A stretch of 8,773 nt of DNA from a virus (Duplodnaviria; Heunggongvirae; Uroviricota; Caudoviricetes): the IMG/VR virus record IMGVR_UViG_2695420539_000004, one strand, 5' to 3'. The notes under the pieces are model-generated. The model had not been told where the DNA came from. It searched no databases and saw only the letters and a program-made list of their open reading frames with translations. The position numbers were made by a program, and so were the translations under genes. Every line of letters begins with the position of its first letter. Position 1 is the stretch's first letter. Of this stretch, positions 2,748 to 8,619 are shown one piece after another.

Positions 2748-3176
2748 CGTTGGCCCCGCTTCTCTGAATCGCTTTATACCGCCATTCCAGCACTTCGGTC
2801 AGCGGCATAACGTCAGTAACGGATGGCGGCCAGTGAAAAATGGTGGCGATATCTGCCACCAGATCGTCAACCGTCAGGCTGTCGGTAAACCGGCAAGCAC
2901 CGACTTCTTCAACAAAAAAGTGACAACCTCAACCGACATAGCAGTGAGATCTGCCGGGTCCATCTCTGCAATTTCCTGTGCAGTCAGTGCCGGGCTGGAG
3001 ATGCGGGGGATCACGATCATCATCGCGTTCACATCCATATCCATAATCGCCTGCAGGCGTGTACCGCGCAGCGCACCGGACTGCGGTTTGCGCAGCACAA
3101 TTTCGGTGATTTCTGTTTTACCACGCTTGATAGGGGTATCCAGTTGAATGGTCTTTTCAGTCTGCTTATCGCTCAT
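2740..3176 (-). CDS. E': gpE+E' fusion chaperone produced by programmed -1 ribosomal frameshift (about 145 aa)
   Basis: After codons 87-88 (TTT TTG) of E, a -1 shift onto codon GTT (2913..2911) gives 57 further sense codons (VEEVGACRFTDSLTVDDLVADIATIFHWPPSVTDVMPLTEVLEWRYKAIQRSGANDE) ending at TGA 2742..2740. That stop overlaps the tape-measure ATG (2747..2745). I counted 174 nt = 58 codons with no internal stop. Confidence 0.7.
2874..3176 (-). CDS. E: Tail assembly chaperone (P2 gpE-like), 100 aa
   Basis: ORF-track minus ORF MSDKQTEKTIQLDTPIKRGK...VTFLLKKSVLAGLPTA. Sits between tube and tape-measure genes as in P2 and lambda (G/GT equivalent). Weak SD (AGGA) upstream. Contains slippery heptamer near its 3' end. 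Confidence 0.8.
   Translation of the reverse strand: MSDKQTEKTIQLDTPIKRGKTEITEIVLRKPQSGALRGTRLQAIMDMDVNAMMIVIPRISSPALTAQEIAEMDPADLTAMSVEVVTFLLKKSVLAGLPTA
2913..2919 (-). other. Slippery heptamer T-TTT-TTG for the E/E' -1 frameshift
   Basis: + strand caaaaaa (2913..2919) is TTTTTTG on the coding strand, in phase X-XXY-YYZ with the E frame (acT TTT TTG). Position is 12 codons before the E stop, as in tail-chaperone frameshifts of the lambda G/GT type. Confidence 0.65.
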
Positions 3177-3201
3177 TTTGCTGTCCTGTAAATTAGGTTC
3201 T

Positions 3202-3219
3202 GGCGCGGTATTCCGCGCC
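3202..3219 (-). other. GC-rich stem-loop in the FII-E intergenic spacer (possible attenuator or processing/stability element)
   Basis: Perfect 7-bp inverted repeat ggcgcgg (3202..3208) / ccgcgcc (3213..3219) with a 4-nt loop (tatt), located between the FII stop (3231) and E start (3176). Not followed by a U-run on the transcribed strand, so not a classic intrinsic terminator. Confidence 0.3.
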
Positions 3220-3230
3220 GTTCAGATACA

Positions 3231-3746
3231 TCAGAGGCCGAGGGCGTTACGGTGTGCTTCCATCAGGTCCACACCGTCCACGATTTCCACCATGTTGATG
3301 AGGTCCACTTCATAGAGCACCTCACCATTGATGGTCAGCTTCGCGTAGCTGTTGGTACTGGTCACTTTGGTGGTGTTGCTTTCGCCCGTCTTCCACTCGC
3401 CGGAATCCACTTCTTTGTGACGTCCACGTACCACAAGCTCCACGGCCTGCACTTCCCCGGTATCATCACGCTGGATAGAGCCGGTAAAGCGCAACTGGAT
3501 GCCATCCACCGTGGCTTTGCCCATCTGTTTAAACAGCAGCAGTTCAGTACCACCAATGGAAAATTCTGTGTCCAGAGCACTGTCATCAAGCCCCAGATCC
3601 ACATCCACTGCACCCGGCATTCCGCCGCCGCGATACTTCTCATATTTGCGGGTGAATTTCGGCAGCGTCAAAGACTCTACGATCCCCTGCCAGTTGTTCC
3701 CGTCGTTAAACAGGTTCAGATGTTTTAATTTGCGTGGTAAAGCCAT
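3231..3746 (-). CDS. FII: Tail tube protein (P2 gpFII-like), 171 aa
   Basis: ORF MALPRKLKHLNLFNDGNNWQGIV...YRGGGMPGAVDVDLGLDD... matches my recollection of the P2 FII N-terminus (MALPRKLK...) and the YRGGGM motif. GGGGA SD 5 nt before ATG. Immediately downstream of the sheath gene. Confidence 0.9.
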   Translation of the reverse strand: MALPRKLKHLNLFNDGNNWQGIVESLTLPKFTRKYEKYRGGGMPGAVDVDLGLDDSALDTEFSIGGTELLLFKQMGKATVDGIQLRFTGSIQRDDTGEVQAVELVVRGRHKEVDSGEWKTGESNTTKVTSTNSYAKLTINGEVLYEVDLINMVEIVDGVDLMEAHRNALGL

Positions 3747-3755
3747 GTTGTCCCC

Positions 3756-4928
3756 TTACGCGCTGACCTGGCTGGCAAAATTCACCAGGTACTGATCGGT
3801 GATGCGCTGACGCAGCATCAGATTTTCAAGTGGCGGCACTGGCGTGTAGTCATAGTCGATGGTGAGTTTTCCGGCTTTCAGCGTGTCTTTGTCGTTCACC
3901 GACTCGTCCAGCCAGCAATCACCACCAATGAGATACCCCTGACTGACCAGGCTGCGCATTTTGGCGCGGATACCTTCGATAATGTCGCGGGCCAGCGACG
4001 GGTTCAGCGGTTTGTCCACCGCCCACATATGCGCTTCTGCCATCGTGTCCATCAGTACCTGCGCCGTGCGGGTGTAGTTTTCGAAGGCAAAGAGCGGGTC
4101 ATCACTCAGGCAGCGGGAACCCCAGAAGCGGAAACCGTCTTTGCGGATAAGCGTGGTGACGTCGTTCTGGTTAAGCAGTCCCGCATCGGTTGCCGGGTCC
4201 TGCAGATCCCAGAACACATCTGCAGAAATTCCGGTGACACCGTTCACGCCCACGTTGGACAGGCTTTTGTGCCACCCGGTCTGCTCATCAATTTTGGCGC
4301 GCAGACCAAGCGCACGGGCGGTGGCATATGCCGTTGCTTCGGCATTCAACACCGTATCCCAGCCAGTAAAGTCGGGCCAGATCAGCATTCCTTCGCGCTG
4401 GCTGAAGTTTTCACGGTAAGTGATCGCCTCCTGTACCGTCTTGCAGCCATACGCTGACAGGTAAGCAAACCCACGCAGGCTTTGCGCCACGCTCAGCAAC
4501 TCAGTCGCAACGGCTTTGTTATCGTGACCTGGCACGCCGAGAATGCGCGGTTTAACGCCGAGCTGTGACTGGGCAGATAGCAGGGCTTTCATGCCTGTTT
4601 TTTTACCTTCAGCAGTCACAGCGCCGATGATATTGGTCGTGGTTTCGTCTTCCGTTTCACCCTGCGGCACACGCACAACAACGGTCACGGGTTTTGCCTG
4701 GTCAGCGATGGCATCCAGCGAACGGGCCAGAGTACCGGACTCACCCGCTTTACCGCTGGCAGTCAGCACATCAGTGATCAGCACGGGTTTATTAAGAGGA
4801 AACATTTTTGCATCGGCATCATCGCCCGTGCAGATCATACCCACGATGGCGGTGCTCACCGTGGTAATGGATCGGGTGCCTTCGTTGACTTCAACAACGC
4901 GCACCCCGTGGTGGTAATCCTGAGCCAT
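3756..4928 (-). CDS. FI: Contractile tail sheath protein (P2 gpFI-like), 390 aa
   Basis: [57 protein letters not shown]... with C-terminal ...[32 protein letters not shown]. Closely resembles remembered P2 FI along its whole length. Strong SD AGGAGG (4938..4943 on + as cctcct) 9 nt upstream of ATG 4928. Confidence 0.92.
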
Positions 4929-4954
4929 AGTGGCGAACCTCCTGATTGGATTAG

Positions 4955-5022
4955 GCTTCGCCCTATGTTGAAGTGATTGTGCCTGACAAACAGCTAAGCG
5001 CAGTTGTACCGTTATTCACACA
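4955..5022 (-). promoter_or_regulatory. Candidate P2-type activator-dependent late promoter for FI-FII-E-T (TGT-N12-ACA dyad)
   Basis: On the transcribed strand the 142-bp invertase-FI spacer contains TGT-gtgaataacggt-ACA (+ coordinates 5005..5022), the dyad signature described for Ogr/Delta-activated P2/P4 late promoters. Dyad centre is about 85 nt upstream of the FI ATG. The -10 is ambiguous (CACAAT or TCAACA candidates) and there is no -35, as expected for activator-dependent promoters. Confidence 0.4.
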
Positions 5023-5070
5023 AAATGACGGTATTTGTCTGCTTGCAGGGATAATCAAAATAATGCTGAT

Positions 5071-5637
5071 TCAGGGAGATTCATTGCTCTTATTTGCCGG
5101 AAATTTTCTATAAATAGTAGAAACGCCTACATCAAAAATCAGTGCAATACGCTGTCTTGATTCTCCGGCCTCAAGTAAACGCCCAATCTGTGCCCACTGT
5201 TCGGTGGTCAACTTAGGACGGCGTCCACCTACTCTGCCTTTGGCACGAGCTGCAGCCAGCCCTGCCCTGGTACGTTCAACTATCAGTTCGCGTTCCATTT
5301 CAGCCAGGGCACCCATAACATGAAAAAAGAAACGGCCCATTGGGGTACTGGTATCAATACTGTCAGTCAGGCTTCGGAAATTCACGCCACGCTGGCGCAA
5401 CTCTTCTATCAGCGTAACAAGATGCCGCATACTGCGCCCCAGTCTGTCCAGCTTCCAGACAACCAGAGTGTCTCCTGCCGATAGTGTCCTGAGCAGTTTT
5501 TTAAGCCCCGGTCTGTCGGACTTAGTGCCACTGATTTTATCCTCAAAAATCCGCTCACATCCCGCGCAGTTCAGTGCATTACGTTGCAAATCGGTGTTCT
5601 GGTCATTTGTTGACACGCGTACATAGCCAATAAGCAT
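5071..5637 (-). CDS. Site-specific DNA invertase, small serine recombinase of the Hin/Gin/Cin/Pin family (188 aa from the conserved start)
   Basis: MLIGYVRVSTNDQNTDLQRNAL...DTLVVWKLDRLGRSM...GVNFRSLTDSIDTSTPMGRFFFHVMGALAEMERELIVERT...C-terminal HTH (GVSTIYRKF). Catalytic Ser in VRVSTNDQ. Conserved start MLIGYV at 5637 has SD AGGGGA 6 nt upstream. The ORF-track start at 5682 adds 15 non-conserved residues ([15 protein letters not shown]) and is probably not used. Confidence 0.9.
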   Translation of the reverse strand: MLIGYVRVSTNDQNTDLQRNALNCAGCERIFEDKISGTKSDRPGLKKLLRTLSAGDTLVVWKLDRLGRSMRHLVTLIEELRQRGVNFRSLTDSIDTSTPMGRFFFHVMGALAEMERELIVERTRAGLAAARAKGRVGGRRPKLTTEQWAQIGRLLEAGESRQRIALIFDVGVSTIYRKFPANKSNESP

Positions 5638-5664
5638 GATCAATCCCCTGAATAAAAACCGGGG

Positions 5665-6057
5665 ATGATGCCAGTTAGCCATTATCTCTGCATTTTCATA
5701 AACGTTGGTTTGGGAGAAGCGGCTAAAAGGAATGTAGGGACAGGGGCGAATCAGATACCTGATATGGGTAGCTTCACGCTTTCTGTTTCAGGTACTGGAT
5801 ATCAAAAATTACCATCAGGTTTTATTCTTCAGTGGGGCTCAATCGGCGCACCAGGCATTGCACAGGATGTAGTAACCCATTTCCCGATTGCATTTCCAAA
5901 CAGATGTCTGCGTGTTTTGGTCTCACAAGACTACACACCAGATAGCGGGGCTGTTGGTTATATTGCCTGTGCAGGTTTTAGTCCCGACCCGGTTAAATTT
6001 ATATCCAGAGCCAGTACTCCTGGCCTCGGCGCTTCATTTTTAGCGTTAGGCTGTTAA
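5665..6057 (+). CDS. Silent alternate tail-fibre C-terminal segment (Sv'); expressed only as a fusion to the H constant region after inversion
   Basis: ORF-track frame 5665..6057 reads through the crossover site as ...[23 protein letters not shown]..., the same GLGE phase as H (LLTYLGLGEG). Functional exon is 5719..6057, about 113 aa, ending TAA 6055..6057 and followed 21 bp later by tfa'. The ATG at 5665 lies outside the segment, has no proper SD and is antisense to the invertase leader, so stand-alone expression is unlikely. Confidence 0.6.
5693..5718. repeat. Invertase crossover site (gix/hix/cix-like 26-bp site), left end of invertible segment
   Basis: TTTTCATAAACG-TT-GGTTTGGGAGAA: 12-bp half, 2-bp core, 12-bp half. 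20/26 identical to the Hin hix consensus as I recall it (TTATCAAAAACCTTGGTTTTCAAGAA). Inverted relative to the 7558..7583 site (22/26 match to its reverse complement), with complementary cores TT/AA. Confidence 0.75.
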
Positions 6058-6078
6058 TTTAGCTATATGGAGTGAAAA

Positions 6079-6519
6079 ATGAATTACATATATTCCGCGA
6101 CTACAAACTCTTTCTATCCGCTGGAGATGAAAGAGGATTACACTCAAGCTGACTCATGGCCAGATGATGCTGTTGAAGTTGATGAGCAAGTGTATATTGA
6201 GTTTTCCGGATTACCGCCGAAAGGAAAAATCCGTATCGCTGGAGAAAATGGTTTTCCTGCATGGTCCGAAATTCCACCACCAACACATGAGGAACAAATT
6301 GCTGCAGCCGAACTGGAGAAGCAGCAATTGATTAATCAGGCCAACGATTATATGAACAGTAAACAATGGCCTGGTAAAGCGGCTATTGGTCGTCTGAAAG
6401 GTGACGAACTGGCGCAATATAATTTGTGGCTGGATTACCTGGACGCACTGGAACTGGTCGATACTTCCGGTGCGCCAGATATTGAATGGCCTACGCCTCC
6501 GGCAGTTCAGGCCAGATGA
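6079..6519 (+). CDS. tfa: Alternate tail-fibre assembly chaperone (Tfa', Mu U'/P2 gpG family), 146 aa
   Basis: MNYIYSATTNSFYPLEMKEDY...QYNLWLDYLDALELVDTSGAPDIEWPTPP: characteristic Tfa N-terminus and conserved C-terminal motif. GGAG SD 7 nt upstream (6068..6071). Lies directly after Sv' within the invertible segment. Confidence 0.85.
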   Translation: MNYIYSATTNSFYPLEMKEDYTQADSWPDDAVEVDEQVYIEFSGLPPKGKIRIAGENGFPAWSEIPPPTHEEQIAAAELEKQQLINQANDYMNSKQWPGKAAIGRLKGDELAQYNLWLDYLDALELVDTSGAPDIEWPTPPAVQAR

Positions 6520-7093
6520 CATCCGGCGCGGTGCTGGTATCTGTTGCCGTCACCGCGTCAATGTAATCCAGCACAGCGTTAAGTCGGGTGGTTTCTGCCT
6601 GCGTCAGCTTCCGCCCGGCCTGCAATTTCAGTTGAATCAGACTGATGGAAGCCATTGCAGTATCAATCAGTGACTGACGCTGTGCTTCTGCCGCGTCTAC
6701 TGCGGCGCAATGCTGTGCCTCAGTATCGGTCACCCATTTCTCACCATCCCATTTATCGAATGGCGTTAACGGGGCGATAGTGGTTGTATTTTCAGGGTAA
6801 TCACCCGGAGTTGTGATTTCTTTGGCGTCTCCCGTTTCGGTGTTATAGATGATTTCACCGCGATGGTCTGGCACATACTCCCATGAGTTTAAATCTGCTG
6901 AACGGCAGATTGCATAACCAGCTTTATGTATACCTGGTGCATCTAAACAAGAACATGCCGGGATACCGACGCCAACAGCAAGATATTCAGTTGATGTGGA
7001 AAGATATTCCCGCGTCTTGCTGTCGTAGTTAAACACGGTCACATCACCCGCTACCGTGGCAATCAGTTCGCTGTTTAATTTTGCCTGTGCCAT
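6491..7093 (-). CDS. tfa: Tail-fibre assembly chaperone (Tfa, P2 gpG / Mu U family), 200 aa; currently in the expressed orientation
   Basis: MAQAKLNSELIATVAGDVTVFNYDSKTREY...RLNAVLDYIDAVTATDTSTAPDVIWPELPEA. Start ATG overlaps the H stop (TAATG at 7091..7095). Typical enterobacterial Tfa C-terminal motif. Confidence 0.9.
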   Translation of the reverse strand: MAQAKLNSELIATVAGDVTVFNYDSKTREYLSTSTEYLAVGVGIPACSCLDAPGIHKAGYAICRSADLNSWEYVPDHRGEIIYNTETGDAKEITTPGDYPENTTTIAPLTPFDKWDGEKWVTDTEAQHCAAVDAAEAQRQSLIDTAMASISLIQLKLQAGRKLTQAETTRLNAVLDYIDAVTATDTSTAPDVIWPELPEA

Positions 7094-8619
7094 TATGCAG
7101 CCCTCACAATGAAGTTAAATGCGACGTTGCGCGGCCGGTTTTCAGTGGCAACAGGAACGATTTTAGATGCATCAAAGCTAAAGTTTACAGTCCCATTACC
7201 TGCCCCTGAAGGCGCAAGAGTTAATCCTAAAGTTTGTGACACATTCTCAACAGTGACGCCAAATGCACCATCACAATAGATACTTGGGTACAATTGAGTA
7301 TTACCAAACTTGCCAATTATATTTCTGATGGCATCGCCCTGCGATGATAAGATTGCACGCCCAACATCAACCCCGCGCCCGTCATCCCAGCCGCGAATAA
7401 ATTCACCGCGTAAATCAGGCAATTTATTTGTCGGGTAAGCCTTTGCCAGTTCCGGGTATTCTTCAGCAGAAAAAGCCGCACCATTGCATTTCAGCCAGCC
7501 TGTTGGCGGAGTGGCTGAAGGCCACGGAACAGGCACACCAACAGGCAATGCAGAGCCTTCTCCCAAACCAAGGTATGTGAGAAGACCAGCTACATCCTTT
7601 CCACTCAAATTGGTAAGCGTATTGTCCAGCGGTTGTTTACCTGCCAGCGCATTAAGCATTGTCGTGGCAAAGTTCGGATCATTCCCCAGTGCCGCCGCCA
7701 GTTCGTTCAGTGTATCCAGTGCAGCAGGTGCAGAACCCACCATTCCTGCAATCGCCGATTTCACAAAAGCCGTAGTGGCAATCTGTGTATTGTTGACCGA
7801 CTGCGCCGCCGTGGGGGCTGTTGGCGTTCCGGTGAGTGCCGGACTCGACAACGGTGCTTTTAGTGCCAGCGCATTGTTAATGGTGGTACTGAAATTCGGA
7901 TCATTGTTAATGGCTGCGGCTATTTCTTTCAGCGTGTCCAGCGTGGCTGGCGCACCATTAATAAGGGCCGTCAGTGCCGCCTGTACAAACGCAGTGGTCG
8001 CAACCTGCGTGGTATTATTCCCCGCCGCTGGCGTTGGCGCTTTGGGGGTTCCGGTAAATGTCGGGCTGGCTTTTGGCGCGTACTGTGAATGCGGGTCCGG
8101 TGCGGCAAGATGTTTTGCCATCTGATCATCCGCGTACACCTTCAGCTCCAGTGCCTTGTCATCCACATACTTGCGGGTTGCCAGCACTACAGCAGGGTCG
8201 ATTTTCAGGGTGATATTGTCCGTGCTGCTGGTAATCAGCACCATGCGCACGGTCTGAGTGCGCCCGCTACCTTCAGCCAGTTGCGGCTTATAGCTTTCCG
8301 GGCAGTTGCCCACGGCAATCAATGCCCCGGACTCATCAAACAGACCCACTTCACGTATCCACCAACCGCCCTCGTTTTCAGGGATCACCTGTTCGGCAAT
8401 AATCTGGCTGCTGTTCTGCGGGTCGATATAAAGCATATTCAGCGCAGCCCGGCGTTTCTCATTTACCAGTGCCGTCTGTTTTGCGTCCGGCGTTGGCAAT
8501 ACTCCACCGCCATCGCCCACCGCCATATGGGTAATTTTTAGCGGCACACCGAGCGCGGCGGCGCTGGCAAGTTTCGCCGCGCCAATATCCGTCAGCAGGG
8601 TATAAAATTTTGTGCTCAT
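7093..8619 (-). CDS. H: Tail fibre protein (P2 gpH-like constant N-terminal part 7584..8619 fused to a variable C-terminal receptor-binding part 7093..7557 with tail-collar motifs), 508 aa
   Basis: N-terminus MSTKFYTLLTDIGAAKLASAAALGVPLKITHMAVGDGGG resembles P2 H. Two fibre-shaft repeats (...NNTQ[VI]ATTAFV...LDTL.E.AAA...NDPNF.TT..NALA.K.P). C-terminal part has tail-collar-type motifs (PTGWLKCNGAAFS..YPEL...LPDLRGEFIRGWDDGRGVD.GR). Start ATG overlaps the stop of the upstream gene (ATGA). Confidence 0.92.
   Translation of the reverse strand: MSTKFYTLLTDIGAAKLASAAALGVPLKITHMAVGDGGGVLPTPDAKQTALVNEKRRAALNMLYIDPQNSSQIIAEQVIPENEGGWWIREVGLFDESGALIAVGNCPESYKPQLAEGSGRTQTVRMVLITSSTDNITLKIDPAVVLATRKYVDDKALELKVYADDQMAKHLAAPDPHSQYAPKASPTFTGTPKAPTPAAGNNTTQVATTAFVQAALTALINGAPATLDTLKEIAAAINNDPNFSTTINNALALKAPLSSPALTGTPTAPTAAQSVNNTQIATTAFVKSAIAGMVGSAPAALDTLNELAAALGNDPNFATTMLNALAGKQPLDNTLTNLSGKDVAGLLTYLGLGEGSALPVGVPVPWPSATPPTGWLKCNGAAFSAEEYPELAKAYPTNKLPDLRGEFIRGWDDGRGVDVGRAILSSQGDAIRNIIGKFGNTQLYPSIYCDGAFGVTVENVSQTLGLTLAPSGAGNGTVNFSFDASKIVPVATENRPRNVAFNFIVRAA
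7558..7583. repeat. Invertase crossover site embedded in the H coding sequence (constant/variable junction), right end of invertible segment
   Basis: TTCTCCCAAACC-AA-GGTATGTGAGAA. Left half is identical to the reverse complement of the right half of the 5693..5718 site (TTCTCCCAAACC). Encodes LLTYLGLGE (H residues 346-354). Confidence 0.75.
7630..8067 (-). repeat. Diverged intragenic tandem duplication (2 x about 72 codons) encoding the tail-fibre shaft repeat
   Basis: H residues about 185-256 and 259-330 align (SPTFTGTPKAPT...NNTTQVATTAFVQAA...LDTLKEIAAAINNDPNFSTTINNALALKAP vs SPALTGTPTAPT...NNTQIATTAFVKSA...LDTLNELAAALGNDPNFATTMLNALAGKQP). Visible at DNA level as two similar roughly 215-bp blocks. 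Confidence 0.55.

Follow-up and report, generated by a model that had tools for sequence, protein, structure and literature searches.

A probable Gin/Pin-type invertible tail-fibre segment and its unexpressed cassette in a P2-like Escherichia coli prophage

DNA inversions that exchange the C-terminal part of a tail fibre have been described in several phages and prophages. In the Mu G segment (S/U, S'/U', gin), the crossover falls within the fibre gene, two convergent cassettes, each consisting of a fibre tip and a Tfa chaperone, lie between the crossover sites, and the invertase gene adjoins them. The P1 C segment has the same mechanism and layout. The e14 P (pin) segment (stfP-tfaP / tfaE-stfE / pinE) presents a constant part followed by its tip and Tfa, then a convergent Tfa and tip and, finally, the invertase, and its inversion has been demonstrated experimentally (PMC12529663). 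Inversion has also been demonstrated experimentally in P2-like prophages, as those of EPEC E2348/69 carry Hin-family invertases and undergo fibre inversions, with variants that, according to sequencing, coexist in clonal cultures (Goldberg et al. 2014, PMC4272514).

Here, we analyse a stretch of DNA of 8,773 nucleotides (the window), which is the tail region of a P2-like prophage and is 99.9% identical to E. coli SL124. Positions 5719-6519 very probably make up the unexpressed half of an invertible tail-fibre segment of the Gin/Pin type, carried by a P2-like (Peduoviridae) E. coli prophage. The mechanism is that of the e14 P segment and the Mu G segment, here in an intact prophage, and the finding is an ordinary one because the flip-flop switch is textbook. 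Nothing specific to this segment was found in the BASEL, P2-diversity and BIS20 papers. The features of the locus are the following.

5071-5637, minus strand: DNA invertase, a small serine recombinase of the Gin/Pin/Cin/Hin subfamily (from Pfam, PHROG and homologues)
5553-5615, minus strand: candidate recombinational enhancer (two degenerate Fis consensus matches in the invertase gene)
5665-5718, plus strand: leader of the annotated 130-aa "gp53-like domain-containing protein" ORF (RefSeq CDS)
5693-5718, no strand: left, invertase-proximal 26-bp crossover site (reverse complement TTCTCCCAAACC-AA-CGTTTATGAAAA)
5705-7571, no strand: invertible segment of 1.87 kb with two convergent tip-plus-chaperone cassettes (from inversion comparisons)
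5719-6057, plus strand: Sv', unexpressed alternate fibre C-terminus, gp53-like (112 aa and stop)
6079-6519, plus strand: Tfa', tail-fibre assembly chaperone of 146 aa (PF02413, PHROG 188)
6491-7093, minus strand: Tfa, chaperone of the currently expressed collar tip, 200 aa (PF02413, PHROG 105)
7093-7557, minus strand: Sv, currently expressed fibre C-terminus of tail-collar type, 154 aa (PF07484)
7558-7583, no strand: right 26-bp crossover site, within gene H (TTCTCCCAAACC-AA-GGTATGTGAGAA)
7572-8619, minus strand: constant part of H, about 350 aa, which joins either tip (PF12571)

The genes of the window follow the P2-type tail order, I-H-Tfa-[Tfa'-Sv']-invertase-sheath-tube-E/E'-tape measure, with P2-type Pfam families. 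Both the order (I-H-G ... FI-FII-E/E'-T) and the protein families expected of a P2-like (Peduoviridae) module are thus present, the best-matching phage record belongs to a member of the Peduoviridae, and the invertase module occupies the position that Z/fun has in P2.

The original prediction placed an alternate fibre C-terminus with its own chaperone at 5719-6519, and domain searches bear this out, all the elements described lying at the coordinates given. The Sv' frame is open, internal stops being absent, and matches Pfam PF21882 (Gp53-like_C) over the full profile, 1-84, with an E-value of 3.4e-15 and 56.8 bits, the curated cutoff being 24.9 bits. Its sequence matches in the PDB are 4MTM, 6CL5/6CL6 and 6CT8/6CXB, and the same entries are the top five Foldseek neighbours of its AF2 model (6CL6, 6CXB, 6CT8, 6CL5 and 4MTM; probability 1.00, TMq 0.51-0.62), that is, the R1/R2 pyocin foot and AP22 gp53. 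The later neighbours are lectins (HPA agglutinin, LKA1 gp49, discoidin and SLL-2), and the list largely repeats the one published for the pyocin foot (PMC6363177). The model, a monomer of moderate confidence (mean pLDDT 70) with a large rmsd to the pyocin foot, supports a predicted gp53-like, R-pyocin-foot lectin jellyroll for Sv', a type of receptor-binding domain. In the alignment of Sv' homologues, there is almost no variation over the first 44 residues and the remainder is variable, a pattern that fits variable binding loops. The tip also matches K-12 YfdL, to the last 116 aa of which it is 76.7% identical. The start codon of Tfa' lies 21 nt past the Sv' stop, and the protein, which is 96.6% identical to K-12 YfdK, matches PF02413 (Caudo_TAP) with an E-value of 1.5e-37; a PDB sequence search with Tfa' gave 0 matches, and its placement by Pfam and PHROGs is secure.

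The fibre gene itself encodes an N-terminal Phage_tail_fib domain (PF12571, 6.5e-65). The tail-collar motifs that had been predicted for the expressed tip at 7093-7557 were found there, together with a PF07484 Collar match at H residues 361-408 (E 3.4e-15). PDB matches to 9CUY (9e-30), the T4 gp37 tip 2XGF (2.4e-15) and T4 gp12 support the assignment of Sv as a T4 gp37/gp12-like collar tip, of another fold class than Sv'; its identity to e14 StfE is 58%. Sv' had been expected to be shorter and of different architecture, as indeed it is: 112 aa vs 154 aa, PF21882 vs PF07484, and no similarity detectable between the two by BLASTP (E 1.1). As Sv' has fibre-type matches, the original prediction does not fail for want of similarity to known fibre domains.

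The two chaperones were said to resemble each other at the C-terminus and to differ elsewhere. Tfa, which also belongs to PF02413 (8.6e-32) and is 88% identical to e14 TfaE, can be aligned with Tfa' only over the C-terminal ~72 residues, with 38% identity, and the 3' ends of tfa and tfa' overlap by 29 nt. A related claim was that each tip travels with a matched chaperone, and the homologues agree with it: collar tips are followed by a Tfa-type N-domain in 30/30 cases and by a Tfa'-type one in 0/30, a Tfa-type N-domain follows gp53-like tips in 0/80, and Tfa' was found downstream of all close Sv' homologues. This strict co-occurrence of classes supports the view that tip and Tfa are matched; the modular Tfa model derives from Mu (PMC9608196).

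Both cassettes are enclosed by two inverted crossover sites of the 12-2-12 type (two 12-bp half-sites around a 2-bp core), with an AA core in both and inner half-sites that are perfect inverted copies of each other. The left site is identical at 26/26 positions to the pinE-proximal site of e14. As the GLGE codons shared by both fusions (5707-5718) are part of the crossover site, the invertible DNA extends from about 5705 to 7571. The window contains only 2 full matches to the site (0.00 expected by chance), and the one additional half-site match falls on the right site, at its outer half; shufflon-like multiple inversion through further sites was consequently rejected.

Next to the left site lies the invertase, which is full length, matches Pfam Resolvase (2.9e-53), HTH_7 (1.7e-15) and PHROG 125, DNA invertase (8.8e-101), and is 74.6% identical to Mu Gin and 86.7% identical to e14 PinE. 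Its catalytic motif is present, with the catalytic serine within MLIGYVRVSTNDQ. An upstream ATG at 5682 was considered as its start and discarded in favour of 5637, the most likely one, where RefSeq also places it and where the protein begins, like Gin and PinE, with MLIGYVRVS. An NCBIfam search assigned the fibre parts to no named family, and its recombinase matches for the invertase all stayed below threshold. Within the gene, two matches to the weak, degenerate Fis consensus were found at positions 23-37 and 71-85, 48 nt apart, and Mu gin and e14 pinE have matches at these positions as well. We take the enhancer role of this region from the Gin and Hin systems, and inversion may, by the same analogy, depend on Fis.

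Inverting the segment in silico produces an open in-frame H-Sv' fusion of 466 aa, consisting of 354 aa of constant part (...LTYLGLGE) and the 112 aa of Sv', vs 508 aa for H in the native state, 354 aa being the common prefix. The premature stop or frameshift that would have spoken against the original prediction is therefore absent. In flipped relatives, RefSeq annotates proteins of exactly 466 aa. The inverted state is also found in nature: the IMG/VR contig L011 shares 99.55% identity with the inverted window in a colinear alignment of 4919 nt, and UTME-13 is colinear with the inverted window at 96.8%. E. coli NQ3 and LS4, near-clonal yak isolates, differ across 15.7 kb in one respect alone, namely that the 1872 nt between the sites are an exact reverse complement. 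Among 5426 E. coli genomes, at a coverage of at least 80%, the native arrangement was observed in 96 and the inverted one in 81. Both orientations, with breakpoints exactly at the sites, thus occur in relatives of the window prophage, from which we infer that inversion takes place in the source strain itself.

Of the systems mentioned above, e14 shares with the window, in addition to the order of its parts, the pairing of a gp53-like tip (StfP, PF21882, 8.4e-16) with a collar tip (StfE, PF07484, 1.4e-15), a TfaP to which Tfa' is 61% identical over 102 aa, and a 29-nt convergent tfa overlap. By contrast, the truncated fibre of e14 (StfP, 209 aa) belongs to a defective lambdoid element, whereas the window prophage is intact and P2-like, with an H of 508/466 aa, and its gp53-like tip is of the YfdL type, with only 27% identity to the variable part of StfP. 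The same cassette pair is found in K-12 CPS-53 (KpLE1), in the Sv'-expressed orientation: the TfaS fragment and the window Tfa share 93.7% identity, and a crossover-site-like sequence lies within yfdL. Unlike the complete copy of the window, that of CPS-53 has decayed, the collar tip being missing from the annotation and the invertase gene not adjoining. K-12 yfdL-yfdK-tfaS can accordingly be recognised as a decayed copy of the window module.

Mu shares with the window a crossover within the fibre gene, two convergent tip-plus-Tfa cassettes, an adjoining invertase and 12-2-12 sites with an AAACC..GGTTT core, but its segment is of ~3 kb with longer variable parts, there is no tfa overlap, and the cassettes S/S'/U/U' are unrelated in sequence except in the C-terminal part of Tfa (30% to U'), so that they are analogues and not close relatives. 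By its published description, one locus of EPEC E2348/69 has three repeats and four variants, whereas the window has two sites. The R-type pyocin fibre PA0620 and AP22 gp53 (6CL6, 6CT8, 6CXB, 4MTM) resemble Sv' in the C-terminal "foot" jellyroll, which matches the predicted Sv' fold, and the R-pyocin fibre also belongs to a P2-like contractile tail and requires a co-expressed Tfa-type chaperone, PA0621 (PMC6363177). Nevertheless, sequence identity of pyocin and AP22 to Sv' is only ~20-23%, pyocins have no inversion switch, and their receptor specificity (the Pseudomonas LPS core) is not transferable to Sv'.

That the cassette is silent is an assumption. A promoter and terminator scan of 4900-7700 gave counts at chance level and, therefore, its silence is neither proven nor disproven. 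A weak minus-strand hairpin (5657-5676), which lies upstream of the invertase start, was rejected as an insulating terminator, its stem being broken in the homologue of NQ3, L004. Since StfE2, the analogous invertase-proximal ORF of e14, has been reported to block adsorption (PMC12529663), "silent" may be an incomplete description.

This leads to an alternative that we consider unlikely, namely that the ORF at 5665-6057 is made alone in lysogens and, by analogy with StfE2, blocks the adsorption of other phages, alongside fibre switching. According to a study of 2025, inversion of the e14 P segment creates StfE2, which joins the StfE leader to the gp53-like end of StfP; the chromosomal inversion by itself leads to T2 resistance, and StfE2 expressed from a plasmid reduces T2 adsorption and protects from several other phages (PMC12529663). 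The configuration of the window is analogous, as an 18-aa leader resembling that of e14 StfE precedes PF21882 and H carries a collar tip, like StfP2. RefSeq also annotates the ORF as a gene, and an ATG-ATG at codons -14/-13 is preserved in most Pin-type contexts. However, the sequence encoding the leader consists of the region upstream of the invertase and of the crossover site, and because of this overlap with the site and the invertase 5' region the conservation of the leader has an explanation at the DNA level. An in-frame start codon is absent in 9 of the 38 silent-slot contexts listed, 6 of those 9 on intact cassettes, and protein conservation among the homologues starts exactly at GLGE; the leader is probably not a genuine N-terminus. 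No promoter-like site was seen reading into the ORF; a GGGG lies directly against its ATG with no spacer, and no spaced Shine-Dalgarno sequence was observed. The low identity of Sv' to the variable part of StfP also counts against the analogy, that part being the tip of StfE2, and no surface route is evident for a leaderless protein. Regarding the e14 evidence, the adsorption test of StfE2 was plasmid-based, and the qRT-PCR of the same study covers pinQ/pinE, native stfE2 transcript levels not being found there (PMC12529663). The stand-alone 130-aa CDS of RefSeq is, most simply, the parked half of the fibre gene and not an independent gene.

It is less probable still that the segment is a frozen relic, carrying an alternate cassette that is no longer used like yfdL-yfdK-tfaS of CPS-53, where the same module has decayed in place (yfdL and tfaS are pseudogenes, yfdL holds a crossover-site relic and no invertase adjoins), as the window has a full-length invertase with its catalytic motif, both crossover sites intact with matching centres, and both cassettes open and full length, the prophage is complete as far as the portal and terminase genes, the 99.55% identical contig L011 is in the opposite state, and the two orientations are about equally common among relatives.

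For the invertible fibre segment, the preferred reading, the following mechanism can be proposed. The late operon would transcribe the fibre gene H from the minus strand, with its first ~354 codons fixed and its last codons inside the 1.87-kb segment between the two 26-bp inverted sites. The serine invertase would cut both sites at the central AA dinucleotide, presumably with the help of Fis and of an enhancer within its own 5' coding region, as in related systems, and the segment would flip. In the present orientation, H ends in the 154-aa collar tip, followed by the 200-aa TfaE-like chaperone, while inversion gives it the 112-aa Sv' tip, with the 146-aa YfdK-like Tfa' behind. The N-domains of the chaperones are tip-specific, and a C-terminal helical region, assigned to trimerisation in work on the Tfa of Mu (PMC9608196), is common to both. 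Since either tip can be joined to H by inversion, a lysogen population would release two kinds of virion with different receptor-binding tips, a form of host-range bet-hedging. The unrelated folds of the two tips and the analogy with Mu, P1 and carotovoricin suggest that they bind different receptors, most likely LPS or surface-sugar structures.

The locus adds little new biology; it is a clean, intact Gin/Pin fibre switch in a P2-like prophage, the parts of which match named K-12 genes. Even so, the strict association of tip class with the Tfa N-domain offers a useful guide to fibre or tailocin engineering, and any prediction of the host range of these prophages has to take both fusion products into account. 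If an activity of the StfE2 type were true here, a single flip would switch virion host range and lysogen phage resistance together, coupling virion tropism to lysogen defence.

Inversion of the Gin/Pin type very probably swaps the receptor-binding end of the fibre, encoded by gene H, together with its chaperone in this P2-like prophage. Over its 8773 bp the window shares 99.9% identity with the E. coli SL124 chromosome, where its counterpart lies inside a complete P2-like prophage adjoining ybjL, and its closest phage record is a member of the Peduoviridae.

Features in minus-strand reading order (where no other evidence is named, from ORF calls, Pfam and the RefSeq annotation)
Gene I, partial, minus, first in order
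8619-7093, minus, fibre gene H (PF12571 N-terminus; PF07484, Collar, at residues 361-408)
7093-6491, minus, Tfa, 200 aa, PF02413
Between Tfa and the invertase, invertible segment, second half reading plus (inversion tested over 5705-7571)
5637-5071, minus, DNA invertase, a small serine recombinase
4928-3756, minus, sheath
3746-3231, minus, tube
3176-2874, minus, gpE
2859-2740, minus, E'
1-2747, minus, tape-measure gene, start only

In P2 itself, the G-to-FI interval contains the Z/fun gene; therefore, the invertase module occupies that interval in the window prophage. The longest plus-strand ORF (247-1653, 468 aa, TTG start) is antisense to the tape-measure gene and is almost certainly not a gene.

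The parked half of the segment was originally predicted to be an alternate fibre C-terminus, Sv', with its chaperone, Tfa', and to differ in architecture from the expressed tip, Sv. Indeed, 5719-6057 (plus) is open for 112 aa and matches the gp53-like C-terminal domain PF21882 (Pfam, 3.4e-15), unlike the PF07484 Collar of Sv, while 6079-6519 (plus) encodes a 146-aa tail-fibre assembly protein (PF02413, 1.5e-37). No similarity between Sv and Sv' was detectable by protein comparison, and PHROGs places the tips in different families, and likewise the chaperones, the tips always matching at the C-terminus of long fibre profiles. The alignment of Tfa with Tfa' is confined to the final ~72 residues (38% identity), so that a shared C-terminal region is kept and the rest differs. 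Consequently, every statement of that observation is confirmed. The tfa genes converge and share 29 nt of their 3′ ends (6491-6519), as in phage 500465-1, the E. coli relatives and e14 (tfaP/tfaE); Mu has a 28-nt gap instead. An inverted repeat nearby (6429-6446/6555-6572) corresponds to a shared LDY(L/I)DA motif coded on opposite strands.

When 5705-7571 is inverted in silico, the 354-aa constant part of H (ending ...LTYLGLGE) joins Sv' in frame, giving an open 466-aa protein with neither stop nor frameshift, and tfa' begins 21 nt further on. In 24 E. coli genomes the expected junction occurs as an uninterrupted stretch. The fibre of strain 160-11H1 is 466 aa long, its collar cassette being parked at the invertase; UTME-13 aligns colinearly with the inverted window (96.8%), and so does an IMG/VR viral contig (L011) over 4919 nt (99.55%), its sheath-to-invertase part being 100% identical to the window. 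NQ3 and LS4 were isolated from yaks at different places in Tibet, and the lengths of their chromosomes differ by a single base. In the 15.7 kb compared, which belong to this prophage type, their sole difference is that the 1872 nt lying between the crossover sites are exactly reverse-complemented (positions 6721-8592 of both loci, L004 and L005). Of 5426 complete E. coli genomes, 96 cover at least 80% of the native arrangement and 81 at least 80% of the inverted one; neither orientation is a rarity.

The inverted repeat bounding the segment resolves into two 26-bp sites, whose inner half-sites are perfect inverted copies with the same central dinucleotide; the window holds no further copy, nor would any be expected by chance.

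Crossover sites
5693-5718, left site, reverse strand: TTCTCCCAAACC-AA-CGTTTATGAAAA
7558-7583, right site, as given: TTCTCCCAAACC-AA-GGTATGTGAGAA

The invertase shares 74.6% identity with Mu Gin and 86.7% with e14 PinE, and the left site is identical at 26/26 positions to the pinE-proximal site of e14, on which ground resident Pin recombinases could plausibly flip the segment in trans. A recombinational enhancer is a known feature of this invertase family. Two matches to the Fis consensus lie 48 nt apart in 5553-5615 (minus; gene positions 23 and 71); this consensus is degenerate and the evidence weak, but the matches keep the same positions in Mu gin and e14 pinE, which makes the stretch a candidate enhancer. 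The mechanical invertase ORF begins at ATG 5682, and the start that resembles those of Gin and PinE (MLIGYVRVS) follows 15 codons later at 5637; the intervening extension (5637-5682, minus), directed towards the crossover site, is probably untranslated.

Each tip was also proposed to have its own matched chaperone, and this is supported by 80 IMG/VR loci encoding gp53-like tips. Where the tip was at least 75% identical to Sv', the Tfa' N-domain followed downstream at 97-100% identity (20/20 loci), and with more distant tips it became more distant or undetectable. The Tfa-type N-domain of the collar chaperone accompanied none of the 80 gp53-like tips; collar tips in the same loci were followed by it in 30 of 30 cases and never by the Tfa' type (0/30). 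This linkage fits the modular model of Mu Tfa, which assigns tip binding to a variable N-domain and trimerisation to the conserved C-terminal helical part (PMC9608196). Additionally, the Sv'-Tfa' cassette (97-100% identity in the chaperone comparison; 75-100% over L010, L012, L013 and L027-L029) occurs in IMG/VR on H constant parts only 55-72% identical to that of the window. It therefore moves between fibres by horizontal exchange, one boundary being the crossover site. A related viral contig, L080, carries two collar-type cassettes (1431-1880 and 3009-3458) plus a gp53-like one, suggesting a multi-cassette, shufflon-like version likened to the three-repeat fibre locus of an EPEC P2-like prophage (PMC4272514).

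Sequence searches of the PDB gave weak but consistent matches of Sv' to AP22 gp53 (4MTM) and to R1 and R2 pyocin fibres. The five best structural neighbours of its AlphaFold2 model (25 homologues as input; pLDDT 70, moderate confidence) were pyocin "foot" domains and gp53, all matched at probability 1.00, followed by Helix pomatia agglutinin, LKA1 gp49, discoidin and SLL-2. Most of these neighbours recur in the published list for the pyocin foot, a jellyroll of lectin type for which binding of LPS sugars via variable distal loops has been proposed (PMC6363177). Across homologues, residues 1-44 hardly change, and the variation lies in the remainder. Sv resembles the T4 gp37 tip and gp12, its nearest solved chain being 9CUY, deposited as 'Short tail fiber'. 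The two orientations thus display unrelated binding domains, and because of this we infer that they recognise different receptors, which is supported rather than proven.

RefSeq annotates 5665-6057 (plus) as a stand-alone gene for a 130-aa 'gp53-like domain-containing protein', and most of the best-scoring among 441 clusters matched in the protein search are similar ORFs of ~130 aa. Most simply, this is an annotation artefact and represents the fibre gene's unexpressed 3′ half, because conservation among homologues starts exactly at the crossover-site codons GLGE, an in-frame start codon is absent in 9 of the 38 contexts listed (6 of them on intact cassettes), the leader overlaps the crossover site and the invertase 5′ region, and neither a promoter-like site nor a ribosome-binding site at the proper spacing is seen for this ORF. 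An additional role for it is conceivable, as, according to a 2025 paper, inversion of e14 creates an analogous ORF, StfE2 (leader plus gp53-like domain), the inverted chromosome confers T2 resistance on K-12, and StfE2 expressed from a plasmid blocks adsorption (PMC12529663). The window is in this StfE2-like configuration; however, Sv' is only 27% identical to the StfE2 tip and, given also the GLGE boundary, the start-less contexts and the lack of a visible promoter-like site, such a role seems improbable.

Components of the module have named counterparts in K-12.

Identity to K-12 proteins
Tfa' to YfdK, 96.6%
Sv' to the end of YfdL, 76.7%
Tfa to TfaE, 88%
Tfa to the TfaS fragment, 93.7%
Sv to StfE, 58%
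Invertase to PinE, 86.7%

As in the window, the P segment of e14 (L090, 2502-5240) combines StfP, whose tip is gp53-like, with StfE, whose tip is of the collar type; therefore, unlike tip architecture is a known feature too. The yfdL-yfdK-tfaS locus of CPS-53 (L091, 2804-4063) is the same module in a decayed form, oriented so that the gp53-like tip is the expressed one, and its yfdL retains a relic of the crossover site. Inversion has been demonstrated experimentally in fibre loci of EPEC P2-like prophages (PMC4272514) and in e14 (PMC12529663). The in-frame 466-aa fusion, the flipped states found in nature and the tip-chaperone linkage support the original prediction, which, given the K-12 matches and the inversions already demonstrated, correctly describes a switch that is ordinary and well understood.
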